Shown here in pieces: positions 3,560 to 55,520 of a stretch of 57,753 bases of DNA. Location: assembly GCA_043811105.1 (NCBI GenBank), contig JBDRNK010000015.1, positions 1 to 57,753 of the forward strand. Reading direction: 5' to 3'. Each line of letters starts with the position of its first letter. The first letter of the stretch is position 1. The notes below the pieces were generated by a model, which was not told the DNA's origin, searched no databases, and was given only the letters and a program-made list of their open reading frames with translations. The stretch is from Candidatus Uhrbacteria bacterium (lineage in GTDB: Bacteria; Patescibacteriota; Patescibacteriia; UBA9934; CAZDDW01). The position numbers and the translations under genes are program-made.

Positions 3560-4111
3560 TCACTCAAGCAACCATTCGGCGCAGTCCCAGGGTTTGAGAT
3601 AGAAAGTGATCAAGGCTTCGGCATAGCCACGACCAGGTGGGTCTTTGATCCAACCCTGGTCCAAACGAGTTTGCAAAATCTTACACAAGGTTTCCATCTT
3701 GACATCAGAAGAGCGAATGATCTCATGTGTTGCCCGGTTGAAGCGAAGGTGCCAGCTATGCATCCAGCGATTGTGATCATCTTGATCAGCACACTTACAC
3801 ACCAGGCACGAGCCTACAGTTGCATCTTGATCAGGAATATTCTGATCAGACGACACCCGAATATTTCCATCCAACAGCCACTTAACCATGATCAAAGCTT
3901 GGCGTTGCTCAGCATAGCCTTGCAGTTTGGTCAGTGCATTGATCGCCTGGGAAATATCTTTGGTGTTTTTTTCATGGACTGAAAGCGTTCGAGCCGTCCC
4001 ACTTCCAGGATACATTCTAGCTGTTCGTCTTTGACCGCGCGATGGTGGACGCACAGTCATGCCGTGGAACTGATTTTGAATCAAGGTCAGAGTCGGTGTT
4101 CGTTTTGACAT
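3560..4111 (-). CDS. hypothetical protein (GC-rich cassette class)
   Basis: 183-aa ORF with GGAGAC 7 nt before the ATG and TTGACT/TTGACG -35-like boxes upstream (about 4150-4165). I preferred it over the antisense + ORF 3455-3982, which lacks signals and has an odd Cys/Leu-rich composition. Confidence 0.6.
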   Translation of the reverse strand: MSKRTPTLTLIQNQFHGMTVRPPSRGQRRTARMYPGSGTARTLSVHEKNTKDISQAINALTKLQGYAEQRQALIMVKWLLDGNIRVSSDQNIPDQDATVGSCLVCKCADQDDHNRWMHSWHLRFNRATHEIIRSSDVKMETLCKILQTRLDQGWIKDPPGRGYAEALITFYLKPWDCAEWLLE

Positions 4112-4210
4112 TGTTTGTCTCCAAGGTACAAGATTGCAGAGTACTACTAAATCAGCTTTTCGTCAAGTCAATAGTGTCTAAATCAGATTTTTGGTATACT
4201 TGAATAACAT

Positions 4211-11010: not shown

Positions 11011-11017
11011 GCTTGTC
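10994..11017 (+). repeat. REP copy (variant stem) overlapping the glycerate kinase stop codon
   Basis: GGGATCGACAAGCGTAAGCTTGTC. The TAA in the GTAAG loop (11008-11010) is the gene's stop codon. Confidence 0.75.
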
Positions 11018-11154
11018 ATTTAAATACACCTGTTGATAGCTTACTAGCCAATAAGCTTAAAATAAGCTAGACTATACTTGTGATAAGCTTGGCTTGTGGA
11101 TAACCAGGCTTAAGCACCCTTAAATACATAATAAATCACTTAAATAAGATAAAT

Positions 11155-12270: not shown

Positions 12271-12279
12271 ATACACGAT

Positions 12280-12312
12280 ATGCCCGGTAGTACAACTTTG
12301 AATATTAAGTAG
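12280..12312 (+). CDS. leaderless mini-ORF MPGSTTLNIK (copy 1)
   Basis: The ATG lies 9 nt after the -10 box. The peptide and nucleotides are conserved with the 17943 copy (MPGRKTLNFR...). Confidence 0.35.
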   Translation: MPGSTTLNIK

Positions 12313-12418
12313 CCGGGTGTAAATAAACAGGGTTGCTAAAAACCAACAAAGGCTTTTATTCTTAGCATCTATTATTAAGACAACTTGAGTCCAAAAATTC
12401 AAAGTTGTACTACCGGGT
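12280..12418 (+). promoter_or_regulatory. structured 5' leader, copy 1 (candidate cis-regulatory RNA)
   Basis: 12283-12302 is the perfect reverse complement of 12398-12417. The helix ends 1 nt before the main ATG 12419. A homologous copy lies at 17943-18079. Confidence 0.55.
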
Positions 12419-13987
12419 ATGAGCAAACAGCTCGAAAAACTTATTTCAGCTATTGCTGAAGGACACACAGACCCAACCCCGCCTAAAGGCGAGGTTATTT
12501 CAGTTGATGAAACCGTTTCCAAAGCCGCATCGATTTATGAATCTGTGCGCAACACCCTTGAGTATGACGAAGTACATCGCTTACGCAGTAATGCGATCCG
12601 TCGCATTCTTAAGCGTCATCTTGATGGTGAAGAAGATATGTATGAGGTGGCTCGAGATTTGCTTCATGAATTGATCTGGGCCGGGTATTTGCCAAACAAT
12701 CAGATCGCCACTTCTGTAATCAATGAGTTAGCCGATGTTTTGGGTAAATACAGAAAACTGTTTCAAGTAGCCGGAAAACAAAAAGCTGATCCTGAGGAAA
12801 TGTCAGCTTGGTTACTGGACCTGTTATCAACTGAGGTTGAATATTTGATCAATCCTCCGCTTGAAGCAGAGGGGCTGGCAACTTATGCCTATACCGTAGC
12901 CAAATCTAAGATTGAGTGGAAATCCAGCTTGATAAGAAAAGAGGATCGCGAGATGCAACTGTTTTTGGCTATATACCGAACGTTGCTTCGTTCAAATATT
13001 GCGAGTTTGCGATATCGGGTATTTTTGCTGTTTTATCCTGAATGGCCAAAAGCTAGTCAGGCTTTGATTGAAGATATTGCTGGTAATCTGAGCAAGGTTC
13101 ATGATCATGTAGAAACCCAAGTTAATCATCCGGCCGCTGATTCCCTTAATCGTTTAGTTCGTCGTTATGTGATCATGTTTAATGTTTTGCATGACGTTAT
13201 TGTTAAGGATCCGGAACAAGCAATTGATACCCTAAGTACTGAGGCAGGTCTGAAAAAGGCAGTTAATCAAGCAGCAGCAACTCGATATAAAGATTTTTAT
13301 TCCAGAACCCGGCGCGGAATTATTCGAGCAGTAATTTTCTTGTTTTTTACTAAAATGTTGCTGGCTCTAGTTATCGAGCTACCTTATGATGTGGTTGTGC
13401 TTCAGACTACAAATTATATCCCTTTAATTACCAATATTATCTTTTTCCCAATCTTGCTGGGAATAATTGGAATGACCGTGTCTATTCCACAAAAAAAGAA
13501 CACGGAAATGATTTTTTCAACTTTAAAGGCTGTGCTTTATGGAGAAGGGGATATGTCGCTGGTTTATCGAACCAAACGTCCTTGGCGTTCAACTGCTGGA
13601 CGGATTTTTGATATCTTGTACCTGCTGATGTTTATTGTCTCCTATGGGTTGATTGCCTATGCTTTATATAAGGTTGATTTTAACACTTTGTCGATTTTCA
13701 TTTTCTTGTTCTTCTTGTCCTTGGTTATGTTCTTTGGGGTGCGAATTCGTATGACCAAACGTGATTTGTTGATTGTTAAGGGTCGTGGAGGAATTGGTGC
13801 TGCTTTATTCGATTTTTACTTTTTACCGATTATTCGGGCTGGACGCTGGATGGCTTTACGAGCACCGCGGATTAATGTCTTTTTGTTCTTCTTAGATTAT
13901 ATTGTTGAAGCACCGTTTAAAATGGCAATTGCTTTAATTGAGGGTTGGTTAGCGTTTATTCGGGAAAAGAAAGAGGAGATTGAGTAA
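12419..13987 (+). CDS. hypothetical protein: soluble N-terminal half plus polytopic membrane C-terminal half
   Basis: 522 aa with several hydrophobic helices after about residue 300. I did not recognise a family motif. Confidence 0.7.
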   Translation: MSKQLEKLISAIAEGHTDPTPPKGEVISVDETVSKAASIYESVRNTLEYDEVHRLRSNAIRRILKRHLDGEEDMYEVARDLLHELIWAGYLPNNQIATSVINELADVLGKYRKLFQVAGKQKADPEEMSAWLLDLLSTEVEYLINPPLEAEGLATYAYTVAKSKIEWKSSLIRKEDREMQLFLAIYRTLLRSNIASLRYRVFLLFYPEWPKASQALIEDIAGNLSKVHDHVETQVNHPAADSLNRLVRRYVIMFNVLHDVIVKDPEQAIDTLSTEAGLKKAVNQAAATRYKDFYSRTRRGIIRAVIFLFFTKMLLALVIELPYDVVVLQTTNYIPLITNIIFFPILLGIIGMTVSIPQKKNTEMIFSTLKAVLYGEGDMSLVYRTKRPWRSTAGRIFDILYLLMFIVSYGLIAYALYKVDFNTLSIFIFLFFLSLVMFFGVRIRMTKRDLLIVKGRGGIGAALFDFYFLPIIRAGRWMALRAPRINVFLFFLDYIVEAPFKMAIALIEGWLAFIREKKEEIE

Positions 13988-17932: not shown

Positions 17933-17942
17933 TGCCCCTGCT

Positions 17943-17993
17943 ATGCCCGGTAGGAAAACTTTGAATTTTAGGAAGCCGGATGCAGTTACCTAA
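17943..17993 (+). CDS. leaderless mini-ORF MPGRKTLNFRKPDAVT (copy 2)
   Basis: Same position and the same first 8-10 codons as the mini-ORF at 12280. Confidence 0.35.
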   Translation: MPGRKTLNFRKPDAVT

Positions 17994-18079
17994 TGTTGCT
18001 AAGAAAGAAAACCGTTTTTGGTTTTTAGTAACAGGCCTAATTCAATAACCACCTAAGGTTCAAAGTTTTACTACCGGGT
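17943..18079 (+). promoter_or_regulatory. structured 5' leader, copy 2
   Basis: 17946-17965 (CCCGGTAGGAAAACTTTGAA) pairs with 18059-18078 (TTCAAAGTTTTACTACCGGG) with one mismatch. The helix ends 1 nt before ATG 18080. Confidence 0.55.
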
Positions 18080-18661
18080 ATGAGCAAGGAAATTGTCTTT
18101 GATATTGAGACCCAGAATACCTTTGCCGATGTTGGTGGGTATAACACTAAAGCGCTTAAAATTTCAGTGATAGGCGTTTATTTTTATGAGACGGATACCT
18201 ATGAGGCCTTTGCCGTTGATGAGCTAAATAAACTTTGGCCTCGCCTTGAACAGACTGATCGCTTAATCGGTTTTAATAGCAAGCACTTTGATATTCCAGT
18301 AATGAATAACTATTATCCAGGAGACCTGTCGGTTCTGCCGCATCTGGATATTATGGAAGAAGTGGTTAATACTTTAGGACATCGCCTGAAGCTTGAATCA
18401 ATTGCCCAGGCCACACTTGGTTATGGTAAGAGTGGATCAGGTTTAATGGCGGTTGAATATTGGAAGCAAGGGCAGATGGATGAGTTAAAAGACTATTGTT
18501 TACAAGATGTTAAAGTGACCAAAGAGGTTTATGAGTATGGATTAAAGCACGGGGCTTTGGCTTACCCGGACTTTGGTGGAGAACGAAAGGGAATTAAGGT
18601 AGATTTCCGTCAGCAGTCGATAAAAAATCCAGCCTCGATTAATTTAACAATGCCATTCTAG
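18080..18661 (+). CDS. DnaQ-like DEDD 3'-5' exonuclease
   Basis: Exo I 'VFDIETQ', Exo II 'GFNSKHFDIPVM', Exo III 'YCLQDVKVT'. Confidence 0.7.
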   Translation: MSKEIVFDIETQNTFADVGGYNTKALKISVIGVYFYETDTYEAFAVDELNKLWPRLEQTDRLIGFNSKHFDIPVMNNYYPGDLSVLPHLDIMEEVVNTLGHRLKLESIAQATLGYGKSGSGLMAVEYWKQGQMDELKDYCLQDVKVTKEVYEYGLKHGALAYPDFGGERKGIKVDFRQQSIKNPASINLTMPF

Positions 18662-25575: not shown

Positions 25576-25579
25576 ATGT

Positions 25580-25603
25580 GACAAGCTTACGCTTGTCGAT
25601 CCC
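25580..25603 (-). repeat. REP copy (inverted orientation, AAGC/GCTT stem)
   Basis: GACAAGCTTACGCTTGTCGATCCC. Confidence 0.75.
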
Positions 25604-25636
25604 GTCTGGAACAAACTAAAGTTTGTTGATTCCATT

Positions 25637-31871: not shown

Positions 31872-31997
31872 GGGAAAGACGCCCGTAAGGGCGTCAAGGT
31901 TGTGATCTACATTTAAGAAAGCTAATATGACGCCCTGACGGGCGTCTGTCCCACAAAGAAGATTGCTCTCGTGGGGAAAGACGCCCGTAAGGGCGTC
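31872..31997. repeat. REP cluster upstream of the RAYT gene
   Basis: GGGAAAGACGCCCGTAAGGGCGTC / GACGCCCTGACGGGCGTCTGTCCC / GGGGAAAGACGCCCGTAAGGGCGTC. Confidence 0.85.
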
Positions 31998-32003
31998 AAA
32001 GCT

Positions 32004-32543
32004 ATGGCAGTTCCAAGTATCCATCGCCCTTGTCATGATTCAATGAATGTTCCTGGTGAGTATTTTATAACCGGAAAGACAGTAGACGGACAAAAATTCA
32101 TTCAGGCCGGCGAAAGAAAATATGAGTTTCTTGATGTCGTAATCAATTTGTGTGAGCGGCATGCCTTTGAACTGATTGCTTGGATGGTTGCTGATAATCA
32201 TTATCATATTAAAATTTATTCAGATCAAGTATTCAAAATTGGTCGCTTTGCAAACAGTTTACACAGCATCACGGCGAAGATATTTAATGATTTAGATCAG
32301 AAGCCTGGCCGAAAAGTTTGGAACCAATACTGGGATCGTCGAATTCGAGATGAGAAAGAATCCTGGACGGTCTTTAATTATATTCACTGGAATCCAATAA
32401 AGCACAGATACGCAAAGGATTTGTTAGAAGCAACAAAATACAGATACTGTAGTTTAGGAATTTGGCATGAATTGTTGGGTGAAGAGTTGATTGAGGTTTT
32501 TTATGAACAGTATCCGATTGACCAATTCAAACCATTTAAGTAA
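32004..32543 (+). CDS. REP-associated tyrosine transposase (RAYT; IS200/IS605-like Y1 HUH)
   Basis: HUH motif 'DNHYHIKI' and C-terminal 'WNQYWDRRIRDEKESWTVFNYIHWNPIKHRYA' (catalytic Tyr region). I moved the start to ATG 32004 because 31973-31997 is a REP. Confidence 0.8.
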   Translation: MAVPSIHRPCHDSMNVPGEYFITGKTVDGQKFIQAGERKYEFLDVVINLCERHAFELIAWMVADNHYHIKIYSDQVFKIGRFANSLHSITAKIFNDLDQKPGRKVWNQYWDRRIRDEKESWTVFNYIHWNPIKHRYAKDLLEATKYRYCSLGIWHELLGEELIEVFYEQYPIDQFKPFK

Positions 32544-32547
32544 CACT

Positions 32548-32605
32548 GACGCCCTTACGGGCGTCTATCCCCCGAATTAATGGGAGAGACGCCCGTAAGG
32601 GCGTC
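32548..32605. repeat. REP doublet downstream of the RAYT gene
   Basis: GACGCCCTTACGGGCGTCTATCCC and GGGAGAGACGCCCGTAAGGGCGTC. Confidence 0.85.
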
Positions 32606-32616
32606 ATCGTCAGAAT

Positions 32617-34070: not shown

Positions 34071-35011
34071 TTAATGTTGAAAATTTTTGCGTAAAAGAAA
34101 AAGTGCCAGTGTGTCCACAACCTCTGGATGAAACTTATACTTGGGAAAAGATCCGAACGGGTTAACATCTATTACAACGGGTTCGTCATTTTTCATAATA
34201 ATATCCATACATAAATATTTTAGACCTAATTTATCACTTAGGTTTTTAAAATTATCTTCGTAATTACTAAATAGGTTTTCAGGTGCTTTAACTAAGTCAG
34301 CCGAGCTTTTATCAAAGGAGTTTATTTTTTTCTTTTATAAGCAAAGATGTTTCCGTTTACAACAAATACTCTGTACTCTTCTCCTTCAATCATATTTTGC
34401 AAAAAGCAGGTTCCAAAATTGTCAGTATGTTTTTGAATGTCATCTGAGTTAGTAACAAGATGAGGTTTGTATATATAGGCTTTATCATTACCATCTTCTT
34501 CAAAAGATAATATATCTTTAAGAGCACACTCTTTTTTTGGTACTTGATTTGAAAAATAGCAATTACCAAGACTTTTTGTTATTTGTTTATTGTCAAGATT
34601 GAAATCAATATTTCCGTTTTTGATAATAATAGATTTAGGCGTCTTAAGTCCACACTCTCTTGCTTGAGATAACGAGTATAGTCTATTTCGTGCGAAATGA
34701 GCTTTTTGGATATCATTAATTCCCACCTCATTGAATAATAGAGCTATTGTTTTTAATAATTCTGTTTTTTCTCTTTTCTGATAGGTGTCTGTGTGAGGGT
34801 TAATTAAATCATAAGGATACCTAATAAATGACGCTGTGAAACTTTTTATGCTGTGTTTTTCTGCATTGTCTCCGATGTATATCGAATTGTCATCGATAGC
34901 TGTTACATCTTTATCACTAATAATTAAATCACCCTCAGACTTATTCTTATCAAGGGATTTATATAGGTCTTGGACTCTGTTGTATGGACAGCTAATTATT
35001 ATTTTATTCAT
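34071..35011 (-). pseudogene. ATP-grasp ligase (RimK-like) split by a -1 frameshift in an A7 run
   Basis: The ORF 35011-34322 ends '...EYRVFVVNGNIFAYKRKK*'. The -1 frame continues '(I)NSFDKSS...LGLKYLCMDIIMKNDEPVVIDVNPFGSF...' to TAA 34073-34071, which is the expected ATP-grasp C-terminal half. The junction is AGAAAAAAATAA (T-run 34325-34331 on the + strand). Confidence 0.65.
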
Positions 35012-35119: not shown

Positions 35120-35488
35120 TTACAATTCTTTTTCCTTTGTGATTATATGTTCAATGTCTAAAATTGTAATTTCAGGGTCAGCCTTGATTTTTTTTATTTC
35201 AAGCATTGGTAAATAGTGGATTTCGTTGTTGTTAAAAATTATTTGGAAAAAACCATAAGGTAGGCGGACAATTTTATTAATGTCAGAAAATTGTTCCTCG
35301 ACCCCATCTTCACGGATAAAAGTTGCTGAAGATTTGCAATATTCAAAAGAGTTCACACCTTGCACTTTTTCCTGAGAACCATCGGCATAAATTATGGTTC
35401 CCTGGTCTTTGTTTGTGCTTTTATAGGTCTGCACGTTTTTGTAGATACGTTGATTATTGTCCTGAAATATGATTATCAATCGTTGCAT
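35120..35488 (-). CDS. hypothetical protein (very AT-rich)
   Basis: 122-aa ORF. No motif recognised. Confidence 0.5.
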   Translation of the reverse strand: MQRLIIIFQDNNQRIYKNVQTYKSTNKDQGTIIYADGSQEKVQGVNSFEYCKSSATFIREDGVEEQFSDINKIVRLPYGFFQIIFNNNEIHYLPMLEIKKIKADPEITILDIEHIITKEKEL

Positions 35489-35523
35489 AGAAAAAGGGAG
35501 GACGGACGGGAGTGTCCGTCCTC
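35489..35523 (-). terminator. intrinsic terminator of mini-gene A
   Basis: Minus strand: AGGACGGAC..GTCCGTCCT hairpin followed by CCCTTTTT. Confidence 0.75.
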
Positions 35524-35534
35524 AGAGATCTGGT

Positions 35535-35732
35535 CTAGCGACCGTAGCCGGCCGGACCAACCTGACCGTTCGGGCCGATCGGCAGGTTGACGCTGATGCC
35601 CTGGCCCTGACCCAGACCGGGAATCCGGCTGGCGATGTGGGCACCGCCACCGACCGTGGTGATGTGAGAGCCGCCGCTCTCCTTGAAGACGGTTCCGCCA
35701 GGGAACGTGTTAGCAACATTTCCATTGCTCAT
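35535..35732 (-). CDS. Gly-rich 65-aa protein (mini-gene A)
   Basis: MSNGNVANTFPGGTVFKESGGSHITTVGGGAHIASRIPGLGQGQGISVNLPIGPNGQVGPAGYGR. GGAGG lies 8 nt before ATG 35732. GC3-rich codons. Own terminator. Confidence 0.6.
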   Translation of the reverse strand: MSNGNVANTFPGGTVFKESGGSHITTVGGGAHIASRIPGLGQGQGISVNLPIGPNGQVGPAGYGR

Positions 35733-35784
35733 AACTTTGGCCTCCAAAGCCTTGATTCACAGGCCGGAATTGTTCCGGCGCGTG

Positions 35785-35818
35785 AGAAAAGGGAGGACGG
35801 ACGGGAATGTCCGTCCCC
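35785..35818 (-). terminator. intrinsic terminator of mini-gene B
   Basis: GGACGGAC..GTCCGTCC hairpin followed by TCCCTTTTCTC; near-identical to the terminator at 35489. Confidence 0.75.
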
Positions 35819-35840
35819 AAGAGCTAAGCCGATCGGCTCG

Positions 35841-36065
35841 CTAGTAGGTCCGGCCCGGGATGTTATCGTAGCAACGCCGGGGCGGCAGGTTGGACGGGTT
35901 GGCCACGTTGCCAAAGCCACGATCGAAGGCGTCACCACGGATGCCCAGGTTGCCCAGGGCATCGCGTTCACCCTGGTGAACCACCTGGTGGGTGAACCAG
36001 TCCATCTGGTCGCCAGGACGGTCATGCATTCGGTCAGGATGGTGGCCCAAAGAAGGGTAAGACAT
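35841..36065 (-). CDS. His/Asp/Gly-rich 74-aa protein (mini-gene B)
   Basis: MSYPSLGHHPDRMHDRPGDQMDWFTHQVVHQGERDALGNLGIRGDAFDRGFGNVANPSNLPPRRCYDNIPGRTY. GGAGAAGACC lies directly before ATG 36065. Confidence 0.6.
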   Translation of the reverse strand: MSYPSLGHHPDRMHDRPGDQMDWFTHQVVHQGERDALGNLGIRGDAFDRGFGNVANPSNLPPRRCYDNIPGRTY

Positions 36066-36300
36066 GGTCTTCTCCAAGTTGTGGTCTATTTTAGACCGGG
36101 GTTGTAGGGAACTCAGTTAATCTGAGATTAGGTCAGCCCCGAAAGTTATCGAGCTGGCTTTTTGCGAAAATTCGTAGCCGTTCGAATTGCTCGAAGCTGA
36201 TCTAATGTGTCCCTCACCACTGTATGGTCTAAGACCGATATGGCAGTGAGTTGAACAATTGAATCTCAGATTAACATCCTTTGATTCAGACCGCAGATGC
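36066..36300 (-). promoter_or_regulatory. structured ~190-nt leader of mini-gene B (candidate riboswitch-like element)
   Basis: A 13-bp closing helix: + strand 36262-36274 pairs with 36117-36130 (TTAATCTGAGATT / AATCTCAGATTAA on the RNA). It encloses several nested helices. Confidence 0.45.
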
Positions 36301-36311
36301 ATCAGCGGTCT

Positions 36312-36350
36312 GAGAAAAGGGAGGACGAGCCGAGCGTTAGCTCGTCCTCA
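36312..36350 (-). terminator. intrinsic terminator of mini-gene C
   Basis: GAGGACGAGC..GCTCGTCCTC hairpin followed by CCTTTTCTC. Confidence 0.75.
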
Positions 36351-36354
36351 AGGG

Positions 36355-36633
36355 TTAACAATGGATATGAAATCCAGGGTCAGGAAAGAACGTCGGATGC
36401 CGTGACGGGTACCAGTCTGAGTAGGGTCCCCGATATGGAGGGTGGGGCATGGGCGGTGGGAAAGGTCGCATCGGCGGCATGGGAGGCAGGGGATCAGGGT
36501 GGATCGGATTCGGATGCGGTCCATGGATGCAGCCCAAGCAGTTGTGACCAGAGCAATCAAACACAGGGCAACCCGTACCGAATGGTCGATGGTGAACAGT
36601 ACCGAAAGGTTGAAAAGGATCTCCGTGGCGCAT
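36355..36633 (-). CDS. Pro/His/Cys-rich 92-aa protein (mini-gene C)
   Basis: MRHGDPFQPFGTVHHRPFGTGCPVFDCSGHNCLGCIHGPHPNPIHPDPLPPMPPMRPFPPPMPHPPYRGPYSDWYPSRHPTFFPDPGFHIHC. GGAGGAGAAA lies directly before ATG 36633. Confidence 0.55.
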   Translation of the reverse strand: MRHGDPFQPFGTVHHRPFGTGCPVFDCSGHNCLGCIHGPHPNPIHPDPLPPMPPMRPFPPPMPHPPYRGPYSDWYPSRHPTFFPDPGFHIHC

Positions 36634-36749
36634 TTTCTCCTCCAAAAGCAATGCGTTGTTTTATCTTGTCTTCAGGATATAGAGAAACAAATATGAAAAC
36701 TACTGAAAAATTTAAGAAAAACAAAAAACCGCTCTGTTGAGCGGTTGAT

Positions 36750-36803
36750 GGGATCGACAAGCGTAAGCTTGTCAATGTTGACAGGCTGACGCCTGTCGGT
36801 CCC
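36750..36803. repeat. REP doublet
   Basis: GGGATCGACAAGCGTAAGCTTGTC (36750-36773) and GACAGGCTGACGCCTGTCGGTCCC (about 36779-36803). Confidence 0.8.
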
Positions 36804-36815
36804 ACCCAGGCTAAT

Positions 36816-38678
36816 TTATTTAATTCGATCCAAAATTCCTACTGTCAATCCATTCGGAGCAAAATTAATGTCAAAATTCATTAACTGACCATTAATCTTA
36901 AGATAAAGTTCTTGACTAATTTGTTCTTTTAATAGTCGATTTAAAGGAGTGATGATCTTTCCTTGCAGTTCATTTCGATATTCAGTGTATCCAGACTTAG
37001 GTAAATCTTTGTTACTCACTGTTTTGCCCAGGTTCTGCATTAAACATTCTAAGATTTCAATCGTGGCTTTTTGTGATGGAATTTCTTTAGAAGAAAATTC
37101 TTGTCCACGAATAGAAATCTTGCCGTTAACTTTATCTAAGAACAGATCAAAACCGTTTCGATTCATTTCATTGTTTTGCACAATTGTACTTCGGCATCGT
37201 CCAAGTGCGTCACAAGAAATCAGCTGTTTATCATTTTGGTCAATAAAGGTTGAGTATCTTCCTTGAGAAATAAATTGATCAACTTTAATTCCTTGAGAAC
37301 CCCAACCATCACGCCAGGAAGCAAATTCAATTTTAACTTTTGGGTCATGGACACTTTGGATTTCTTTAACAACTTCATGAATCTGATCGCGGAATCGACC
37401 GCGCTGTGAAAATACAAAAACTGTCCCATCCTCTTTTCCCCAATACATGGCACGTAATCCAATCTTAACTCCTTGTTCATGAGCTTTTTGTCGAACCTTA
37501 CTGAAAATAAAGCGCAAGTTACGAGAAGGGGTTTCTTCAAAAGGACCGTTTGAAGAAAGTGTGGTTTCCAGGATTTCTAAAAAGTTGGTGATTTCCGAAC
37601 TTTTTAGTCGATACATATAAGCTCTAATTAAACTGGCTAAAAGAAAAACTCGACTGATTGATTGGCCTTGGGCAAACTGAACCCAATAACGCCCACTCCG
37701 TTCGATCTTTTTCAAAAAGTTTGGTAAGTGATCCTGTTCTTCGCTAATTATTTCAGCAAAAATTTGTTTAACGTTTTCTTGTAGTTCATCAAAACCCGGG
37801 ATAACCACATTCTTTACATATTCTGATGGAGCACCGTAATTTTTCGTTGTTCCAGGATTTATTCCAACAACATCAAAAGGGAACTCTCCGTTGATATCAG
37901 CCAGCTCGTTTAAGCGATAGCACCAGGCTCGCATGTGATTAAGCTCGTCAACATTACTAGAGACATCAAGCGGTGGTAGGCCAGGAAAAGGATGCTCAAT
38001 TGATCCGGCTCGTTCTTCTGTAAAATGAACTATAGGAAAGCTTGAATTCAAAGTTGAGGTATATGATGTTGATCCAGAACTAACACCACAAAATGTCAGA
38101 GCAACAAATTTAATAATATTGCCTTGAATTTCTTTGTACAACAAAGAAATCGGGTCAGTGCCATAGTTAATCTGATGGCCTGTTAAATAAGGTACTTGTT
38201 CAATTTCGTTAATGGTTGCAAATTTATAATAGGCATAAACAGCAAACATTATTGCATTGCTGATGCCTGGATCCAGGCCTGTGTCAGCTGGTTTTTCCGC
38301 TAGAACGTTAATGGTAATTCCTTGAATTTCATTTTGCCCGGTTTTATTTTTTACTATTTTTTCTAAGAGAGGCAGACATTTGGCCCAATCATAAGGATCA
38401 TATTCAAGTGGAATAAAACGTTGTTTGTGTGGCGAATAACCCAAAAGATGATTGATTTGAATTTTACCAACCTGGTTTGGTTGAATTCCAATATAGGTTC
38501 GGAACGGAAGTTTTTGTCTAATCGTTGGTGCTCCAGAACGCCAAGCAATTCCAGTTGGTAGGGCAAAGGAGGTATCGCAAGAAACAACCAAGTCATTTTC
38601 AGCAAAAAAACGCTCGTAGATTTCTTTGTGTCTATCTTGAAGTGCCTCAGTATTTTCTTTTTGTTCAAAAGGCAGCAT
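36816..38678 (-). CDS. GHMP-kinase-like N-terminal region fused to a C-terminal OmpR/PhoB-type winged helix (paralog 2)
   Basis: 620 aa. Degenerate GHMP motif II 'KPADTGLDPGISNAIMFAVYAYY' and motif III-like 'GVSSGSTSY'. C-terminus 'ISIRGQEFSSKEIPSQKATIEILECLMQNLGKTVSNKDL' resembles trans_reg_C. The functional call is tentative. Confidence 0.55.
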   Translation of the reverse strand: MLPFEQKENTEALQDRHKEIYERFFAENDLVVSCDTSFALPTGIAWRSGAPTIRQKLPFRTYIGIQPNQVGKIQINHLLGYSPHKQRFIPLEYDPYDWAKCLPLLEKIVKNKTGQNEIQGITINVLAEKPADTGLDPGISNAIMFAVYAYYKFATINEIEQVPYLTGHQINYGTDPISLLYKEIQGNIIKFVALTFCGVSSGSTSYTSTLNSSFPIVHFTEERAGSIEHPFPGLPPLDVSSNVDELNHMRAWCYRLNELADINGEFPFDVVGINPGTTKNYGAPSEYVKNVVIPGFDELQENVKQIFAEIISEEQDHLPNFLKKIERSGRYWVQFAQGQSISRVFLLASLIRAYMYRLKSSEITNFLEILETTLSSNGPFEETPSRNLRFIFSKVRQKAHEQGVKIGLRAMYWGKEDGTVFVFSQRGRFRDQIHEVVKEIQSVHDPKVKIEFASWRDGWGSQGIKVDQFISQGRYSTFIDQNDKQLISCDALGRCRSTIVQNNEMNRNGFDLFLDKVNGKISIRGQEFSSKEIPSQKATIEILECLMQNLGKTVSNKDLPKSGYTEYRNELQGKIITPLNRLLKEQISQELYLKINGQLMNFDINFAPNGLTVGILDRIK

Positions 38679-38679
38679 A

Positions 38680-40545
38680 TTATTTTATTCGATCTAAAAT
38701 TCCCACGGTTAATCCGTTTGTAGCAAAGTTAATTTCAAAATTCATCAGCTGGCCGTTTATTTTCAGATCAACTTCTCGACCTAATTGTTCGTGAAGTAAT
38801 TTATTTAAAGGCGAGAAGATCTTTCCTTGTAATTCGTTGCGGTACTCTGTATATCCAGACTTAGGTAAGTCTTTGTTGCTCACTGTTTTGCCCAGGTTCT
38901 GCATTAAGAATTCCAAGATTTCAATCGTGGCTTTTTGTGACGGAATTTCTTTAGAACTAAACTCTTGCCCACGAACAGAAATCTTGCCATTTATTTTATC
39001 CAAGAACAGATCAAACTGATTGCGTTGAACTTCTGTGTCTTTGACCACAGTGTGAGAACATTCACCTTTTTCATTACATAATGTTAGTTGTTTTGAATTC
39101 TGTTCAATAAAATCCGAATAAATTCCTTGGGAAATAAACTGGTTAACTTCTAAGCCTTTATCAGCCCAGCCGTCACGCCAAGAGGCAAATTCAATATGAA
39201 TGTTTGGGTTGTACTCTTTTTGTATACTTTCAATCACTTCCATGATCTGATCACGAAATTTACCTTGCTGTGAGAAAACCATGATACTAGCGTCTTCTTT
39301 ACCCCAAAACATTGAACGAAAACTTATTTTTATTCCTGACTCATGAGCTCGTTCTCTGATTTTTCGTGTAATATATCGTAAGTTGCGAGAAGGTGCCTCT
39401 TCAAACGGTCGGTTGATAGTCATTAAAGCATCCTGAGCTTCAAGGAAACTATATACATTTGAGCTGCGCATTTTGTATTGATATAGGTGGATCAATTCTT
39501 GAAGAACATATAACCGAGACATGGCTTGGCCACGAAGATAACGTTGCCAGTAATTACCAGGTCGATCTATATATTTCCAAAAACTTGGAATACGATTTTG
39601 ATCTGAAAAATCAAATTTTGAAAACAGTTCTTTGGTATCAATTTGTAATTTATTAAAATCTGGAACAAGCACTTCTTGAACATGGGTCATGGCCGCAGCG
39701 TACTGTCTTGATGATCCAGGATAGATACTGACCACATCGAGTGGGATTGGCTCATCGTTGATTTTGGCCATTTCAGTTAATCGAAAGCACCAATGTTTGA
39801 TTGACTCAGCTCGATCAAGATCGTCACTGATATCAAGTGGTGGTTTATTTTCGTATGGTTCAGCAACACTACCAGCGCGTTCTTCCATTACATAGACGAA
39901 CGGGCTTTTACCGTCAAGAGTTCCAGGATAGGTGTCTCCACCAGTTGCTACTCCATGAAAGGTTTGTGAGAGAAGTTTAAGGGCAACACTAATAACATCT
40001 TCAAAATATTTTGCTGCACTAATTTCTTTTGTTTGTAGATCAATACCGGTCAATTTTGATATCTTATTGGCAGTATCCAAATCAATAATTCCATAATAAA
40101 GAAAACAGACCAAAGCGATAGAAAACGCACTTGGTGCGTCAAATCCAGTATTTTCCGGTTTTTCATAAAGAAGATCTAATGTGATACCTGGAAAATCTTT
40201 TGTTTTTAAACGTTTGCTAATTTCTTGATGAAGAATTGGAATACTTTTCTCAAGATTGATCGGCTCATATTCAAGTGGAATAATTTGTTGATCTCGACTC
40301 GAGTAGTATCTAGTTTTTTCAATTTTTATTGTTCCATTCTCATTATTTTTCTTTACACCTGCATACATTCGAAAAGGTATCTTGTGTTTGACTGCTGGTG
40401 CACCGGCTCGCCAAGTAAGACCAGTTGTTATATTAAAATTCATTCCACCAGAAATAACCAAATCATGCTCAGCAAAAAAACGTTCATAGGTTTCGTGAAA
40501 CCTTTCTTGGAGCGCTTGGGTGTTTTCGATCTGATTTTTATCCAT
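38680..40545 (-). CDS. GHMP-kinase-like + winged-helix fusion (paralog 1)
   Basis: 621 aa, collinear with 36816-38678 and separated from it by 1 nt. The C-terminal ~60 aa are almost identical to the paralog. Confidence 0.55.
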   Translation of the reverse strand: MDKNQIENTQALQERFHETYERFFAEHDLVISGGMNFNITTGLTWRAGAPAVKHKIPFRMYAGVKKNNENGTIKIEKTRYYSSRDQQIIPLEYEPINLEKSIPILHQEISKRLKTKDFPGITLDLLYEKPENTGFDAPSAFSIALVCFLYYGIIDLDTANKISKLTGIDLQTKEISAAKYFEDVISVALKLLSQTFHGVATGGDTYPGTLDGKSPFVYVMEERAGSVAEPYENKPPLDISDDLDRAESIKHWCFRLTEMAKINDEPIPLDVVSIYPGSSRQYAAAMTHVQEVLVPDFNKLQIDTKELFSKFDFSDQNRIPSFWKYIDRPGNYWQRYLRGQAMSRLYVLQELIHLYQYKMRSSNVYSFLEAQDALMTINRPFEEAPSRNLRYITRKIRERAHESGIKISFRSMFWGKEDASIMVFSQQGKFRDQIMEVIESIQKEYNPNIHIEFASWRDGWADKGLEVNQFISQGIYSDFIEQNSKQLTLCNEKGECSHTVVKDTEVQRNQFDLFLDKINGKISVRGQEFSSKEIPSQKATIEILEFLMQNLGKTVSNKDLPKSGYTEYRNELQGKIFSPLNKLLHEQLGREVDLKINGQLMNFEINFATNGLTVGILDRIK

Positions 40546-45621: not shown

Positions 45622-45755
45622 GGATACGAACTACGAAAATATACGAAAGTACGAAATCGATAAACCACGGCAGTAGAAATAGAAAGGAATGGTGATTATT
45701 GATAGACCTTCTTAGAAAACTTTCGTATTTTCGTACGCTTTCGTAGTTCGTATCC
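45622..45755. repeat. 134-bp element with 35-bp imperfect terminal inverted repeats built from TACGAA words
   Basis: Left arm GGATACGAACTACGAAAATATACGAAAGTACGAAA (45622-45656); right arm TTTCGTATTTTCGTACGCTTTCGTAGTTCGTATCC (45721-45755). Confidence 0.7.
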
Positions 45756-50756: not shown

Positions 50757-50978
50757 GTCAATCCCTTCCCACCTACCAACACTTCACACCCGCTCCGCCC
50801 GCAGTCCCCAGTAGCTCCATCAGGAGCGTAGGGGGGCAGTCGGTTCTCACCGAGAGTCGTCCATGGGCAGAGGGCGGTCTCACCCTGTACCGACGGCATA
50901 AGCCTTGACCGTCTGGTACAGGGCTTTTTTTATTTTTAACCTTTAGCGTTAAAACGAAGAAGTCGCTTGAAAAGGCGG

Positions 50979-51039
50979 TTTTGAGCAATTAACTCAAGGT
51001 GTTGAAGTCACGAGCCGTGAAGTTGTCAAAGCTCGTCAG
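50979..51039 (+). pseudogene. relic copy of the 3' end of a cassette-2-type gene
   Basis: 61 nt match 51958-52018 with 2 mismatches. It encodes FEQLTQGVEVTSREVVKARQ followed by TGA. Confidence 0.7.
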
Positions 51040-51136
51040 TGATTTGGGGTCAGGCCGGCCTGCCCTGTACCGACGAAGTGCAACGACGTCTGGTACAGGG
51101 GAAACGGGAATCGCTGATAAATTTGGTGACTTACGC

Positions 51137-51165
51137 TTGACGGATAGCCAACATTATGCAAGAAT
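51137..51165 (+). promoter_or_regulatory. cassette promoter
   Basis: TTGACG (51137-51142), N17, AAGAAT (51160-51165). Confidence 0.5.
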
Positions 51166-51208
51166 AAGTTACCGAACCGTAAACAACCAAACTCCACTGG
51201 AGGGAAAA

Positions 51209-52090
51209 ATGATCTGGTGGCCACTTATCACAGCACTGCTTTGCTCGGTATGCGCAATTGGTGGATTGGCTATATTTCGCCGTGCACGTCAAATATCTCT
51301 GAATTCTGTATTTTATAGTGAAGAAGACTTAAAAACTGCTGGAGTAACTATACCCGTTTTCGGACTCGGTATGTTTGGTGCATTACCGATGATAGAACTT
51401 GGGCTACCTTATCTTACCTTTGTTCTCCTCGTTCTCGGAGCTTCGTGCCTGACTCCAGCTACTATTTATGGTATGCGTCAAGCAGAATTGGAACAGAAGT
51501 TTAAGCAACTTCTAGGTGAACAAAGTGAAGCCATCAGAGCAAAGCTGAAAGCCTGGTATCAGAGCTGGCGGGAGCGGGAAAACAAGGTGCTGCGTGATGC
51601 CGGGAGAAAGGCAGATGAACTCTGCGATCTGATTCCTGATGTACCTTGGGAGGAGTTCCGAGGTTTTATCAGACAGGTGGCAAACAACTTTCTGCCCGAG
51701 CTGTACACCCAGGCTCAAGAACTACGAGACGAAGTTGCCCAGGTCGGTGAGATCATCGCCGAGTACAAAGACAAAAAACTCGATGACTTCTCTCGTGGCC
51801 TGCTCGGAAAAAGTGTGGCTGACAAGCAGGAGTTGGAAAAAGCTCTGGCAGAAATCGAGATTCAGATCACAGCCTGCCGTTCTTTCCTCGACCACATCAA
51901 GTCCGACCTGCTGGTGGCTCGCCGACGAGGTACTGGCCTGCCCGAACTTCGAGCTCGTTTTGAGCAATTAACTCAAGGTGTCGAAGCCACGAGCCGTGAA
52001 GTTGTCAAAGCTCGTCAGGAAGTTGATGACATTGGTGATCGACGTGTGGTTAACCTGCCGTCTCATCCTAGACAGCGCACGCCTCAGTGA
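51209..52090 (+). CDS. membrane-anchored coiled-coil protein (cassette 2)
   Basis: I moved the start to ATG 51209, after GGAGGGAAAA. TM helices followed by a coiled coil. Terminator at 52105-52139. Confidence 0.6.
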   Translation: MIWWPLITALLCSVCAIGGLAIFRRARQISLNSVFYSEEDLKTAGVTIPVFGLGMFGALPMIELGLPYLTFVLLVLGASCLTPATIYGMRQAELEQKFKQLLGEQSEAIRAKLKAWYQSWRERENKVLRDAGRKADELCDLIPDVPWEEFRGFIRQVANNFLPELYTQAQELRDEVAQVGEIIAEYKDKKLDDFSRGLLGKSVADKQELEKALAEIEIQITACRSFLDHIKSDLLVARRRGTGLPELRARFEQLTQGVEATSREVVKARQEVDDIGDRRVVNLPSHPRQRTPQ

Positions 52091-53373: not shown

Positions 53374-53616
53374 TTTCTCAACCGCCCCACCCATTCGGCC
53401 TTCGAAGCCGCACCTTGGGTAGAGGGCGGCTTTTTTATTTATAGACTAAAAACTAAAAATGGGGTCAGGTCTTGAGTTCGAACCTCAATAGACTAGATAG
53501 TACTGTGGTGCAGGTCTTTGGTTGACTAGTTGCCTCGATCGGACAATCGAACCCAGGGAGATTCTCATCCTCCCCGGGATCATAAAAACCGTCTAGAAAA
53601 ATCTAGCCGGTTTTTA

Positions 53617-53784
53617 TGGTGACCCCAGGGGGAATATAGTCGTGCCGACCATATTGAACTCCTCCGCTCGGAAGACGTTGAATGAATTCAGGTCTTCTCT
53701 CGCTCAGTCGTGCAATCGAACCCAGGGAGTTCTCATCCTCCCTAGGATCACAAAAACCGCCTGGAAGAATCCAGTCGGCTTTTG
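53617..53784. repeat. tRNA-3'-end-like repeat module, copy 1
   Basis: It starts TGGTGACCCCAGGGGGAAT. This is followed by a ~85-nt block almost identical to 55297-55383 (GTCGTGCCGACCATATTGAA...CGTTGAATGAATTCA..GTCTTCTCTCGCTCAGTCG..AATCGAAC). It ends in a bidirectional hairpin. Confidence 0.6.
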
Positions 53785-53993
53785 TGGTGACCTACTGTAT
53801 TGAGAATTGGAACACCATTATCCAACATCTCAAGCAATGGTCAGAAACCTTGCCGCATATTTTGGAAGAAAAAACTTTTGCAATAAATCAACTATAGCAA
53901 GCTCTTTTTGATGGAGATGATTTACAATTCTCTTCATTGGACATCTACTTGTTTTCCAAGGATATATCCCTATTTCTCCGTAACTATTCCAAT

Positions 53994-55079: not shown

Positions 55080-55262
55080 ACGAGGCAGTTGATTACGTGT
55101 TTGGATTCGTTGGAACACTCCCAGAGACATGGATTGACACCGACTTCACACAAAAACAACAGTTACAGAGTTTGATTTTCCCAGAAAAACCCGTGTACAC
55201 CTATTCAGGATTTGAAACACGAGTTTTGTCGCCAATGTTCGCAACAAAAAAGACTCATCATA
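55080..55262 (+). pseudogene. possible C-terminal fragment of a serine recombinase
   Basis: 'WIDTDFTQKQQLQSLIFPEKPVYTYSGFETRVLSPMF' resembles, from memory, the tail of large serine recombinases (..KQrlQklvFPeG..y....yRT..vn.vF). No catalytic domain lies upstream. Confidence 0.3.
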
Positions 55263-55277
55263 TAGATGAGTCCTCTT

Positions 55278-55445
55278 TGGTGACCTCACGGAGAATATGG
55301 TCGTGCCGACCATATTGAATTCCTTCGCTCGGGAGACGTTGAATGAATTCAAGTCTTCTCTCGCTCAGTCGAACAATCGAACTCGCCGAAGTGTCTCATC
55401 CCCATGGAAATCAAAAAGCCGCCGTCCATTTGGACGACGACTTTT
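55278..55445. repeat. tRNA-3'-end-like repeat module, copy 2
   Basis: The first 19 nt, TGGTGACCTCACGGAGAAT (55278-55296), are identical to the 3' end of the adjacent tRNA-Glu gene as read on the + strand. The conserved ~85-nt block follows. It ends in the hairpin GCCGCCGTCC..GGACGACG. Confidence 0.65.
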
Positions 55446-55520
55446 TGGTGACCTCACGGAGAATCGAACTCCGGTTCCAAGGATGAGAACCTTGTGTCCT
55501 AACCACTAGACGATGAGGCC
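55446..55520 (-). tRNA. tRNA-Glu (anticodon CUC), CCA encoded
   Basis: Minus strand: GGCCTCATCGTCTAGTGGTTAGGACACAAGGTTCTCATCCTTGGAACCGGAGTTCGATTCTCCGTGAGGTCACCA. I folded the cloverleaf by hand: 7-bp acceptor, anticodon loop TTCTCAT, T-loop TTCGATT. Confidence 0.9.

Follow-up and report, generated by a model that had tools for sequence, protein, structure and literature searches.

In the puf operon of Rhodobacter and the pap and malEFG operons of E. coli, intercistronic hairpins or partial terminators set differential mRNA stability. A comparable arrangement was found in the window, a 57,753-nucleotide stretch of Candidatus Uhrbacteria DNA (contig JBDRNK010000015.1). As in operons of this type, short cistrons lie behind what appears to be one promoter, stable hairpins separate them, and the downstream gene would be reached via read-through only. 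We hold, with somewhat more confidence than doubt for the joint reading, that the GC-rich island in this window is the core of an expression unit conserved in a clade of Candidatus Uhrbacteria and relatives, with one main promoter and leaky terminators. In the proposed order, one or more ~600-aa genes would be followed by a terminator, a single promoter-like block, a variable array of small genes (here C, B and A) and a 122-aa gene (D). The genes of the locus and an adjoining repeat are as follows.

38680–40545, minus strand: 621-aa protein, second paralog of the ~600-aa family (51% identity to the 620-aa paralog)
36816–38678, minus strand: 620-aa protein, first paralog, directly upstream of the small-gene array
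36750–36803, minus strand: pair of REP-like palindromes (GGGAnnGAC...GTCA) of repeat families D3, D4 and D7, which are spread over the window
36355–36643 including the SD GGAGGAGAAA, minus strand: gene C (ORF 36355–36633), 92 aa, Cys/His/Pro-rich, read as an ORF
35841–36077 including the SD, minus strand: gene B (ORF 35841–36065), 74 aa, N-terminus HHPDRxHDRPGD, assigned by dN/dS
35535–35732, minus strand: gene A, 65 aa, Gly-rich with two invariant His, assigned by dN/dS and family profile
35120–35488, minus strand: gene D, 122 aa, AT-rich codons, no SD, assigned by homologues and dN/dS
34071–35011, minus strand: ATP-grasp gene with a frameshift in an A-run, assigned by Pfam on the merged product

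The order of C26 peptidase, ~620-aa gene, small genes, A and 122-aa gene, with DsbD further on, is shared with a 63-kb JGI contig and with L003–L011 (loci and lineages compared carry L-numbers, proteins P-numbers). The small genes of the array differ from lineage to lineage. An identical copy of the locus, L013, lies in a MAG labelled Pseudomonadota and was the sole match in a scan of genome contigs with the leader core described below. The pair of REP-like palindromes is missing from the syntenic site in L007 and is an insertion outside the unit. With regard to an integron-type gene-cassette array, which would have attC sites between its cassettes and an adjacent integrase, none of the neighbours in the syntenic contig matches an integrase or recombinase Pfam family, and the junctions between the small genes, which consist of a terminator and an SD on the coding strand, are not attC-like by eye.

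The initial annotation of this DNA had described three minus-strand ORFs of 65, 74 and 92 aa, each with its own SD and each followed by a hairpin with a common tail, two of the hairpins being nearly identical. All of these elements are present in the window. The SDs, read from the sequence, are GGAGG+8 nt for A, GGAGAAGACC (TTGGAG) for B and GGAGGAGAAA for C, and a terminator scan placed the hairpins 5, 22 and 11 nt past the stops of C, B and A, respectively. The tail GTCCTCCCTTTT occurs exactly three times in 57.7 kb against 0.31 expected, a number reached in none of 100 shuffles; the terminators of A and B are 94% identical over 33 nt. The small hairpin noticed around the SD of A (35735–35749) is also seen in the MFE fold, and the GGC...GCC pairing that flanks the GGAGG is kept in five lineages, where its variation is uninformative.

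The minus strand had been taken as coding, and the substitution patterns of A and B agree with this. The dN/dS ratio is 0.20–0.40 for A in comparison with relatives and 0.15 and 0.12 for B in comparison with L007 and L001; for D it is 0.14 (L006). By these values, purifying selection acts on A, B and the 122-aa gene, which indicates translated genes. A 212-aa ORF on the plus strand is disrupted in L007, the frame open antisense to A is disrupted in the AT-rich homologue L012, and a 61-aa ORF in the leader region is frameshifted by indels in L007. In the public annotation, B has 54 aa and starts 20 codons late; its first 20 residues are kept in P0002 and L007. In L001 the B homologue is found in an unrelated context, as a lone gene preceded by a separate copy of the promoter block, so single-gene units exist.

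Gene C is probably coding as well. It is apparently unannotated, since no self-match was found in the searched protein collection. At the same position, L007 has a 95-aa ORF with its own SD and the same conserved TAA as stop, and both products contain the motif [FW]xCx(1-3)NCxxC. For the two lineages, an open frame would be expected by chance with probabilities of 0.098 and 0.022. The DNA identity of C to this closest relative is just 43%, in contrast to 79–95% in the flanks; the probable gene appears to have been swapped, or to be hyper-divergent, between close relatives. Homology of C to small Cys/Pro ORFs elsewhere lacks statistical support, and the Cys/Pro ORF of L143 was rejected as a homologue for want of significance.

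Homologues of D are found behind the array in L006, L008, L010 and L003. Its start lies 0 nt (window) or 5 nt (L006) past the tail of the terminator of A; a terminator so placed would have to be read through, which argues that termination here is incomplete. The merged 313-aa product of the ATP-grasp gene passes the Pfam ATP-grasp_3 model (30.9 bits against a cut-off of 23.2). Its best NCBIfam matches are RiPP maturases (MvdC, MvdD and grasp-with-spasm), far below the cut-offs (34.8 against 230 bits for TIGR04192, 32.1 against 425 bits for TIGR04185). The gene is missing from the syntenic L006 and is a lineage-specific neighbour and no core part of the unit.

Elements with a likely role in transcription and its termination, together with the SD hairpin of A, are located as follows.

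36722–36746, minus strand: intrinsic terminator of the 620-aa gene, from the terminator scan, conserved in L007, L009 and L004
36690–36721, minus strand: conserved promoter-like block TTTTTCTTAAATTTTTCAGTAGTTTTCATATT upstream of C
36663–36680, minus strand: conserved segment ATATCCTGAAGACAAGAT downstream of the promoter block, from an alignment of seven lineages
36313–36349, minus strand: terminator hairpin after C with tail CCTTTTCT, from the terminator scan
36287–36312, minus strand: junction hairpin 2 after C (CAGACCGC...GCGGTCTG), with an analogous hairpin at the same position in L004 and L003
35785–35818, minus strand: terminator hairpin after B, from the terminator scan and repeat analysis
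35757–35785, minus strand: junction hairpin 2 after B, TCAC-GCG-CCGGAA..TTCCGG-CCT-GTGA, from covariation and the MFE fold
35735–35749, minus strand: small hairpin CTTTGG-AGG-CCAAAG holding the SD of A, from sequence and the MFE fold
35489–35523, minus strand: terminator hairpin after A, from the terminator scan

The core of the promoter-like block, TTTCAGTANTTTTCATA, has a single occurrence in the window and occurs once each, exactly and at the equivalent position, in L001, L002, L004, L007, L009 and L010; near-exact copies of the block are present in L014, L143 and L012. The block was seen in seven lineages, including the unrelated L001 locus, where it lies upstream of the B homologue. By eye it matches the sigma-70 hexamers weakly (TTCTTA-17-CATATT), and it could instead be an operator. 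The conserved segment downstream of it may be the transcript 5′ end, or an operator. Searched against viral contigs, the AT-rich core gave more than 120 chance matches and is therefore uninformative at that scale.

The three genes had been described as individually promoted, and this claim found no support. No promoter-like site was found within the island in a sigma-70 consensus scan, the space before B and A is occupied by GC-rich hairpins and the leader with no conserved AT-rich block, and the sole conserved promoter-like block is the one upstream of C. We infer that the array would be transcribed mainly from this single block. Three independent mini-operons, with their own promoters and efficient terminators and with unrelated, metal-regulated metal-binding proteins as products, were the model of the initial annotation. 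They would account for the SD and the well-formed hairpin with a U-run at each gene, for the abundance of His and Cys in the proteins and for the L001 homologue of B that stands alone behind its own block, yet the whole window holds one promoter block, neither a promoter-like site nor a conserved AT-rich block precedes B or A, and D, abutting the terminator of A, needs read-through. We consider this model unlikely.

The three terminators have stems of 10–11 bp with seven GC pairs and a CCTTTT(T)CT tail, as expected of intrinsic terminators; their short, C-interrupted U-run (4–5 U) is compatible with partial termination. The junction module comprises a GAGGAC...GTCCTC hairpin, a CCUUUUCU tail, a U-rich linker and a second, covarying hairpin, and is followed by the SD. 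It is repeated in every lineage, with at least four copies in L143. The outer stem of hairpin 2 is TCAC/GTGA in the window and L007, TAAC/GTTA in L009, TCGC/GCGA in L004 and TTGCG/CGCAA in L003. The terminator of C and its hairpin 2 together are 95% identical to L007. We rejected GAGGAC...GTCCTCCCTTTTCT as a special sequence: it is a generic stem plus tail that is found in phages too, and the terminator pattern scan matched six ordinary phage terminators.

We propose that the leaky terminators act as attenuators and/or 3′ stabilisers; cleavage in the U-rich linker may leave a 5′ end that hairpin 2 shields. The outcome would be stable, graded and largely monocistronic mRNAs.

The junction between C and B appears to be expanded into a highly structured leader RNA of ~220 nt, with the following parts.

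36066–36286, minus strand: structured leader RNA of B, ~220 nt, from the MFE z-score and pairwise covariation
36263–36275 and 36116–36128, minus strand: closing stem of the leader
36156–36179, minus strand: conserved core of the leader, GGCTACGAATTTTCGCAAAAAGCC
36098–36109, minus strand: CTACAAC motif of the leader

The predicted leader has an MFE of -92.8 kcal/mol (z = -6.84), and none of 200 shuffles was equally stable. In comparison with L007, none of its 62 pairs is broken and two are compensatory; the sequences differ in 8 of 124 paired and 37 of 101 unpaired columns. The two pairwise comparisons together gave no broken pairs and three compensatory ones, with differences in paired columns 5–6 times rarer, for a set of four sequences that form two close pairs and with a structure picked by RNAalifold from these same sequences. 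In the four-way MAFFT and RNAalifold alignment covariation is weak, and the close-pair analysis is more informative. L009 and L004 have the core too, and a similar fold of two hairpins. No Rfam family matches the leader at the gathering score; at E<=5 one match overlaps it, a chance match of mir-1822 on the plus strand (17.8 bits against a 73-bit threshold). The core was not found in viral contigs. An anti-SD role of the CCUCC tail was discarded: the tail pairs with the SD of B in one MFE fold, but a far more stable terminator hairpin must open. The leader might sense a signal that sets downstream expression.

On the whole, the initial annotation was confirmed in part as an observation and supported in part as an interpretation, with the exception of its independent transcription units. 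The leader RNA between C and B, the junction modules, the 122-aa gene as a member of the unit and the hyper-divergence of C are absent from it.

Co-occurrence of the small genes with the 620-aa paralogs, which the initial annotation had raised as a question, is real: the pair of a ~600-aa gene and A is found in three lineages. In the distant L014 and L143, a 620-aa homologue (31% identity, E=9e-112, and 40% identity, E=3e-178, respectively) lies directly upstream of an A-family gene, and in L007 and L009 it lies upstream of the entire small-gene array. In L015, L144 and L145 the A homologues lack a ~600-aa neighbour, so the two genes need not be paired. Neither the 620-aa and 621-aa proteins nor D match any family in Pfam, NCBIfam, PHROG or PADLOC. 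The remark that A, B and C belong to no described family is borne out by searches of the same four collections and, for the A family, of PDB profiles. PDB profile searches with the A family, the 620-aa family and the C-terminal domain of the latter gave nothing below E=0.35; for this C-terminus the sole PDB match was the response regulator 1kgs_A (E=0.69). An OmpR/PhoB-type winged helix seen there by eye is unsupported, with no Pfam match and an hhalign probability of 0.2% against a PhoB DNA-binding domain. A single-sequence AF2 model of the 620-aa protein has a pLDDT of 36.

Gene A founds an undescribed family of ~60–90-aa proteins with two invariant His. The family comprises 26 representative clusters among 1.84 billion proteins searched. 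Its alignment is conserved across residues 5–45, with H23 and H32 invariant and K17 and E18 not conserved. The L012 homologue has 55% protein identity and AT-rich codons (GC3 0.16). P0014 and P0027 combine the A domain with CxxC..H..C knuckles in one protein, P0020 and P0010 with Pro/aromatic-rich regions. No match to A was found in phage genomes by tblastn, nor in genome contigs with the A profile. The AF2 model of A from 26 homologues is weak (pLDDT 61), and Foldseek found nothing below E=4 for it in the PDB. We rejected A as a Gly-rich class II bacteriocin or microcin: GG13 is part of the conserved domain and not the end of a leader. Pfam families of ABC transporters and C39 peptidases had no match in the 10-kb surroundings examined in the syntenic JGI contig, nor in those flanking genes of the window that were scanned.

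Metal binding by the array proteins is plausible, given their composition, the two invariant His of the A family and the fusions of the A domain to knuckles. The products, small and rich in His/Cys ligands, could bind metal, one another or both; the ~600-aa protein might have A as its partner or act on it as a substrate. No paper was found on small, His-rich or Cys-rich proteins in Uhrbacteria or CPR. The locus might represent an undescribed CPR small-protein system that combines a ~600-aa enzyme or regulator with the two-His A protein, Cys/His/Pro-rich cassettes recombining at junction modules, and a new ligand-sensing, possibly metal-sensing, leader; in this full form the proposal is a long shot.

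Equally improbable in our view is a RiPP-like pathway in which A, and possibly B and C, would be precursors and the ~600-aa protein a new maturase, to which the ATP-grasp ligase may contribute in this lineage. In its favour, small genes directly follow the gene of a large conserved protein in three lineages, the array differs among lineages in its small genes, a divergently oriented neighbour resembling C26 gamma-glutamyl hydrolases is conserved, and graspetide maturases are the best matches of the merged ATP-grasp protein. Against it, A homologues are found without the ~600-aa gene, the ~600-aa protein has no match among known maturases, A is conserved nearly end to end with no leader/core split, no protease or transporter genes are nearby, and the ATP-grasp gene is frameshifted, far below the family cut-offs and missing in the closest relative. 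A graspetide RiPP cluster in the strict sense was rejected: there is no intact, family-scoring and conserved ATP-grasp maturase, and the A family has no conserved leader with a core that offers Thr/Ser/Lys and Asp/Glu for macrocyclisation.

The GC jump reported in the initial annotation is evident, with 58–67% in the island and 29–35% in the downstream neighbours. The GC3 bias reported with it is true of A (0.74) and B (0.73), the highest values in the window, and not of C, where GC3 is just 0.52, so the GC of C stems from its Pro/His/Gly/Cys content. In four close lineages, GC3 of A stays at 0.74–0.75 despite a dS of about 0.7, with S<->W codon changes in both directions and NNC preferred. 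The maintained NNC- and GC3-rich codons of A and B point to high expression. A recent foreign GC-rich fragment, or chance ORFs in a GC-rich region that is non-coding, for instance a large structured RNA, would fit the abrupt GC jump, the long chance ORFs that GC-rich DNA gives on both strands and transcript regions that fold better than shuffles, but is very improbable and for A and B largely refuted, given minus-strand frames under purifying selection, a protein homologue with AT-rich codons, high GC3 at equilibrium in four lineages, synteny kept among relatives and no Rfam family match.

CPR bacteria have many short genes that are unannotated or mis-annotated, and this locus gives concrete cases: one of three genes is apparently missing and another is 20 codons short. 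The locus defines a candidate cis-regulatory RNA and two protein families, the small one with two histidines and its ~600-aa partner, all undescribed. With its SDs, terminators and leader the mechanism is a conventional one; the re-used junction module between small genes is unusual. If the codon bias reflects high expression, few proteins of these poorly understood episymbionts may be more abundant than these products. For now the practical gain is modest, namely better annotation and a defined target for metatranscriptomics and proteomics.

Graspetide (microviridin-type) clusters resemble the locus in that small ORFs adjoin an ATP-grasp protein with MvdC, MvdD and grasp-with-spasm as best matches; here, in contrast, the ATP-grasp gene is frameshifted, scores about 10-fold under the cut-offs and is missing in relatives, and the small proteins have no leader/core pattern. 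C and its positional counterparts are similar to zinc-knuckle, zinc-ribbon and metallothionein-like proteins in having at least four Cys in CxxC-type spacing, plus His, and further array members in relatives are Cys-rich. Unlike such proteins, they reach the gathering score of no Pfam family, the nearest approach being zf-AN1 with the protein of one relative (E=0.0036), and C carries a long tail of Pro, His and aromatic residues. Like riboswitches and other structured 5′ leaders (among them the metal-sensing czcD/NiCo, yybP-ykoY and M-box families), the leader is a ~220-nt structured 5′ UTR with conserved sequence and pairing, and the SD of a His- or Cys-rich small protein follows it directly; in contrast to them, it has no Rfam match and no obvious terminator/anti-terminator platform, and is represented by four sequences. 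Compared with the puf, pap and malEFG operons, the predicted junction here is built from two hairpins and a conserved tail; this module is repeated and precedes different small genes in different lineages.

The contig comes from a metagenome-assembled genome (MAG) of Candidatus Uhrbacteria bacterium (57,753 bp; locus tags ABIH67_...). ORF reading of the GC-rich island at 35489-36650 recovered all three small minus-strand genes of the initial annotation, each with the expected SD read off the sequence:

35535-35732, minus strand, gene A, ORF of 65 aa
35841-36065, minus strand, gene B, ORF of 74 aa
36355-36633, minus strand, gene C, ORF of 92 aa

A terminator scan confirmed a hairpin after each of the three genes, with a 10-11-bp GC-rich stem and a CCTTTT(T)CT tail. 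The proposed common tail is borne out by the 12-mer GTCCTCCCTTTT, whose three copies in the window (0.31 expected) all lie in the island terminators, and the terminators of A and B, described as nearly identical, share 94% of positions. The GC content is 58-67% in the island versus 29-35% in the downstream neighbours. The strong GC3 bias claimed for the whole array holds for A (0.74) and B (0.73), which have the top values among all window ORFs, but not for C (0.52), where GC richness comes from the amino-acid content; in a window-wide screen for SD-led, GC3-rich small ORFs, A and B were the clear outliers.

Genes A and B are real. Near homologues of A (73-82% identity) are found in syntenic metagenome contigs, and its dN/dS is 0.20-0.40. 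Searched exhaustively with a profile, a set of 1.84 billion representative proteins yielded 26 A-family clusters at E<=1e-3, nearly all of 56-92 aa; the 20 clusters checked are all unnamed or 'hypothetical' and originate from metagenomes or MAGs. In the family alignment H23 and H32 are invariant, and G13, G20, T34, G39 and G43 near-invariant. The GC3 of A stays at 0.74-0.75 across four lineages separated by dS of about 0.7, and the synonymous differences among them are mainly G/C to A/T exchanges in both directions; the codon bias is hence maintained and is not a decaying trace of transfer. Gene A prefers NNC codons (GGC, AAC, ATC, CAC), a preference typical for highly expressed bacterial genes. 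Its homologue in the far lineage L143 has a GC3 of 0.67 versus 0.43 in the neighbouring genes; another, in contig L012 (55% identical), uses AT-rich codons (GC3 0.16), and there the frame antisense to A is broken. Similarly, a 212-aa plus-strand ORF across A and B is disrupted in the syntenic contig L007.

Gene B has a syntenic orthologue in L007 (86% identical) and a homologue (P0002, ~80% identical) in the unrelated contig L001, with dN/dS of 0.12-0.15. The public record begins B at an internal Met, giving 54 aa instead of 74 aa; since residues 1-20 (..LGHHPDRxHDRPGD..) are conserved, this start is too late. In L001, the gene directly upstream of the B homologue, at 6909-7313, encodes a 134-aa protein with an acyl-carrier-protein-like motif LESIDFLEF (identified by eye), and a U32 peptidase / radical-SAM-like gene is close by.

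Gene C is a probable gene; in our own estimate it is likely to be coding. It has no self-match in the protein collection searched, and thus apparently escaped gene calling. Between the window and the closest relative, L007, the flanks of C are well preserved (promoter block 79% identical, terminator 95%), whereas the ORF itself shows 43% identity with 50 gap columns. At this position L007 has a 95-aa ORF with an SD, and both ORFs share a conserved TAA as their stop; frames this long would stay open by chance with a probability of 0.098 (window) and 0.022 (L007). The pattern [FW]xCx(1-3)NCxxC followed by a Pro-rich segment is common to C, the L007 ORF and 42-43-aa ORFs of L009 and L004. Gene C would be either very fast-evolving or swapped as a cassette.

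The initial annotation regarded the three genes as individually promoted, a view that the transcription signals do not support. No sigma-70-like site was found inside the island. Only one block, TTTTTC.TAA.TTTTTCAGTAGTTTTCATAT, qualifies as a candidate promoter or operator for the array; it is located downstream of the terminator of the 620-aa gene, and GATATCCTGGGA follows ~9 nt further on. The core of the block has a single copy in the window. Exact single copies occur at the equivalent site in L004, L007, L009 and L010, L001 and L002 each have one exact copy ahead of the B homologue, and near-exact copies are present in L014, L143 and L012. Gene D, which encodes a 122-aa protein, starts 0 nt (window) or 5 nt (L006) past the tail of A's terminator, so this terminator must be read through. 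Judged from these sequence signals, one transcription unit with leaky terminators is more likely than three independent units.

The intergenic regions of such a unit have the same layout in every lineage, in which the terminator hairpin (GAGGAC...GTCCTC) and its tail CCTTTTCT lead into a second hairpin, and this into ..AATCAAAGG, the SD and ATG. One junction type fronts different genes: in every lineage it stands before A, and in L003 and L004 also before a 72-aa and a 71-aa gene, respectively. Covariation is seen in the outer stem of hairpin 2:

Window and L007: TCAC/GTGA
L009: TAAC/GTTA
L004: TCGC/GCGA
L003: TTGCG/CGCAA

In one case the terminator stem changes from GAGGAC/GTCCTC to GAGAAC/GTTCTC. 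A diverged junction is present at least four times in L143 (hairpin, CCTTTATNCC, covarying hairpin, then TTAGAGG). The terminator stem and tail alone are generic, and phages have similar ones.

The 289-nt spacer between C and B, unlike C, is 80-95% identical to L007, and its 61-aa ORF is frameshifted there by indels of 2, 1, 1 and 4 nt. The region from the tail of C's terminator to the start codon of B folds with z = -6.84 into a 13-bp closing stem around two long hairpins. The second hairpin carries the cap GGCUACGAAUUUUCGCAAAAAGCC (L009 and L004 read AUAUUCG, and L007 has one more change), the most conserved stretch of the leader over four lineages. In L009 and L004, a matching two-hairpin layout lies directly behind the promoter block, ahead of the C-like 42-43-aa gene.

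Base pairing and sequence differences in the leader RNA
Window versus L007: 62 pairs, 0 broken, 2 compensatory, 4 one-sided; differences in 8/124 paired and 37/101 unpaired columns
L009 versus L004: 39 pairs, 0 broken, 1 compensatory, 4 one-sided; differences in 6/78 paired and 38/113 unpaired columns

The short motif YTACAAC stands ahead of the SD of the first post-leader gene in the window, L007, L009, L004 and L143, and is placed earlier in the 5' UTR in L014. The leader has no Rfam match. These comparisons, which draw on few sequences, provide good evidence that the C-B spacer is a structured RNA.

The locus thus exceeds its first description: besides the small genes it has one promoter block, a leader RNA between C and B, repeated junction modules, a partner protein and gene D. 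Syntenic contigs have the order [C26 peptidase]<>[~620-aa protein]-small genes-[A]-[122-aa protein]...[DsbD/CcdA-like]<. The suggested co-occurrence with the 620-aa paralogs (620 and 621 aa in the window, 51% identity) was seen in these contigs and in two far lineages, where a ~600-aa homologue lies directly upstream of the A-family gene (L014, 31% identity, E=9e-112; L143, 40%, E=3e-178); it is absent beside three other A homologues. The small-gene set varies from lineage to lineage, the constant members among close relatives being A and D (dN/dS of D 0.14). The AT-rich ORFs of 229 and 45 aa at 34071-35011 (minus strand) are one ATP-grasp gene with a frameshift in the A-run AAAAGAAAAAAATAA; misassembly, pseudogenization or programmed slippage may account for it. 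The merged 313-aa product passes Pfam ATP-grasp_3; its top NCBIfam matches are RiPP ATP-grasp maturases, far under the cut-offs, and the RimK-like match is distant. This gene is missing from the syntenic contig L006 of the closest relative, and hence is not core to the unit.

Two database contigs deserve comment. L013 (JAZDKD010000716.1; 2,172 bp) appears identical on inspection to window positions ~35720-37890 and carries the MAG label Pseudomonadota, probably a binning error. In L015, which has an A-family gene, the source-called response regulator at 3915-4577 contains seven in-frame stops under genetic code 11, with no ORF of >=150 aa there; this contig may use an alternative genetic code.

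Several repeats occur elsewhere in the window. REP-like palindromes (GGGAnnGACnnnCGTAAGnnnGTCA and its complement; repeats D3, D4, D7, I4-I6, I10 and I13) are intergenic and often form inverted pairs:

1602-1662, 2273-2297, 10994-11018, 25579-25608: REP-like palindromes
31872-32006, 32547-32614, 36750-36808: further REP-like palindromes

The pair at 36750-36803 is missing at the syntenic site of L007, hence these elements appear mobile. Two copies of a ~90-150-nt element with terminal inverted repeats (ATGCCCGGTAGTACAACTTTGAATATT...), 71-89% identical, at 12279-12426 and 17942-18087 look MITE-like (repeats D5, D18, I2, I3, I7, I8). Direct repeats of 27-140 nt at 53534-53792 and 55259-55464 (D2, D10, D13, D17; 81-85% identical, spacing 168 and 1661 nt) adjoin the sole window tRNA gene, tRNA-Glu (55446-55520), and possibly represent duplicates of tRNA-flanking or tRNA-like segments. 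An inverted repeat (I1, 45622-45755) consists of ACGAA-type short repeats; its 35-nt arms are 89% complementary and lie 64 nt apart. The 69-nt direct repeat D8 (50978-51046 and 51957-52025; 93% identical, 979 nt apart) is found at the start and near the end of a 363-aa ORF (50999-52090), and the 32-nt repeat D20 (97% identical) at 50930 and 52865.

Neither A, B, C, D nor the ~600-aa proteins match Pfam, NCBIfam, PHROGs, PADLOC or PDB, in line with the original remark that no described family is known to combine the features of A, B and C. The all-beta fold that AF2 predicts for A is uncertain, and no structural neighbour was found for it. Besides the two invariant His of A, B carries the conserved HHPDRxHDRPGD motif and C a four-Cys knuckle; other array members of the relatives are Cys-rich. 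P0014 and P0027 carry an N-terminal CxxC..H..C knuckle fused to the A domain, and in P0020 and P0010 the domain is joined to Pro/aromatic-rich segments like C's tail. Membrane redox proteins are encoded nearby (DsbD/CcdA-like in the window, a Ferric_reduct protein in L015). These His/Cys motifs, fusions and redox neighbours are hints that fit, and prove nothing about, putatively metal-binding or mutually interacting small proteins. The locus belongs to no described family, yet it is made of conventional parts.
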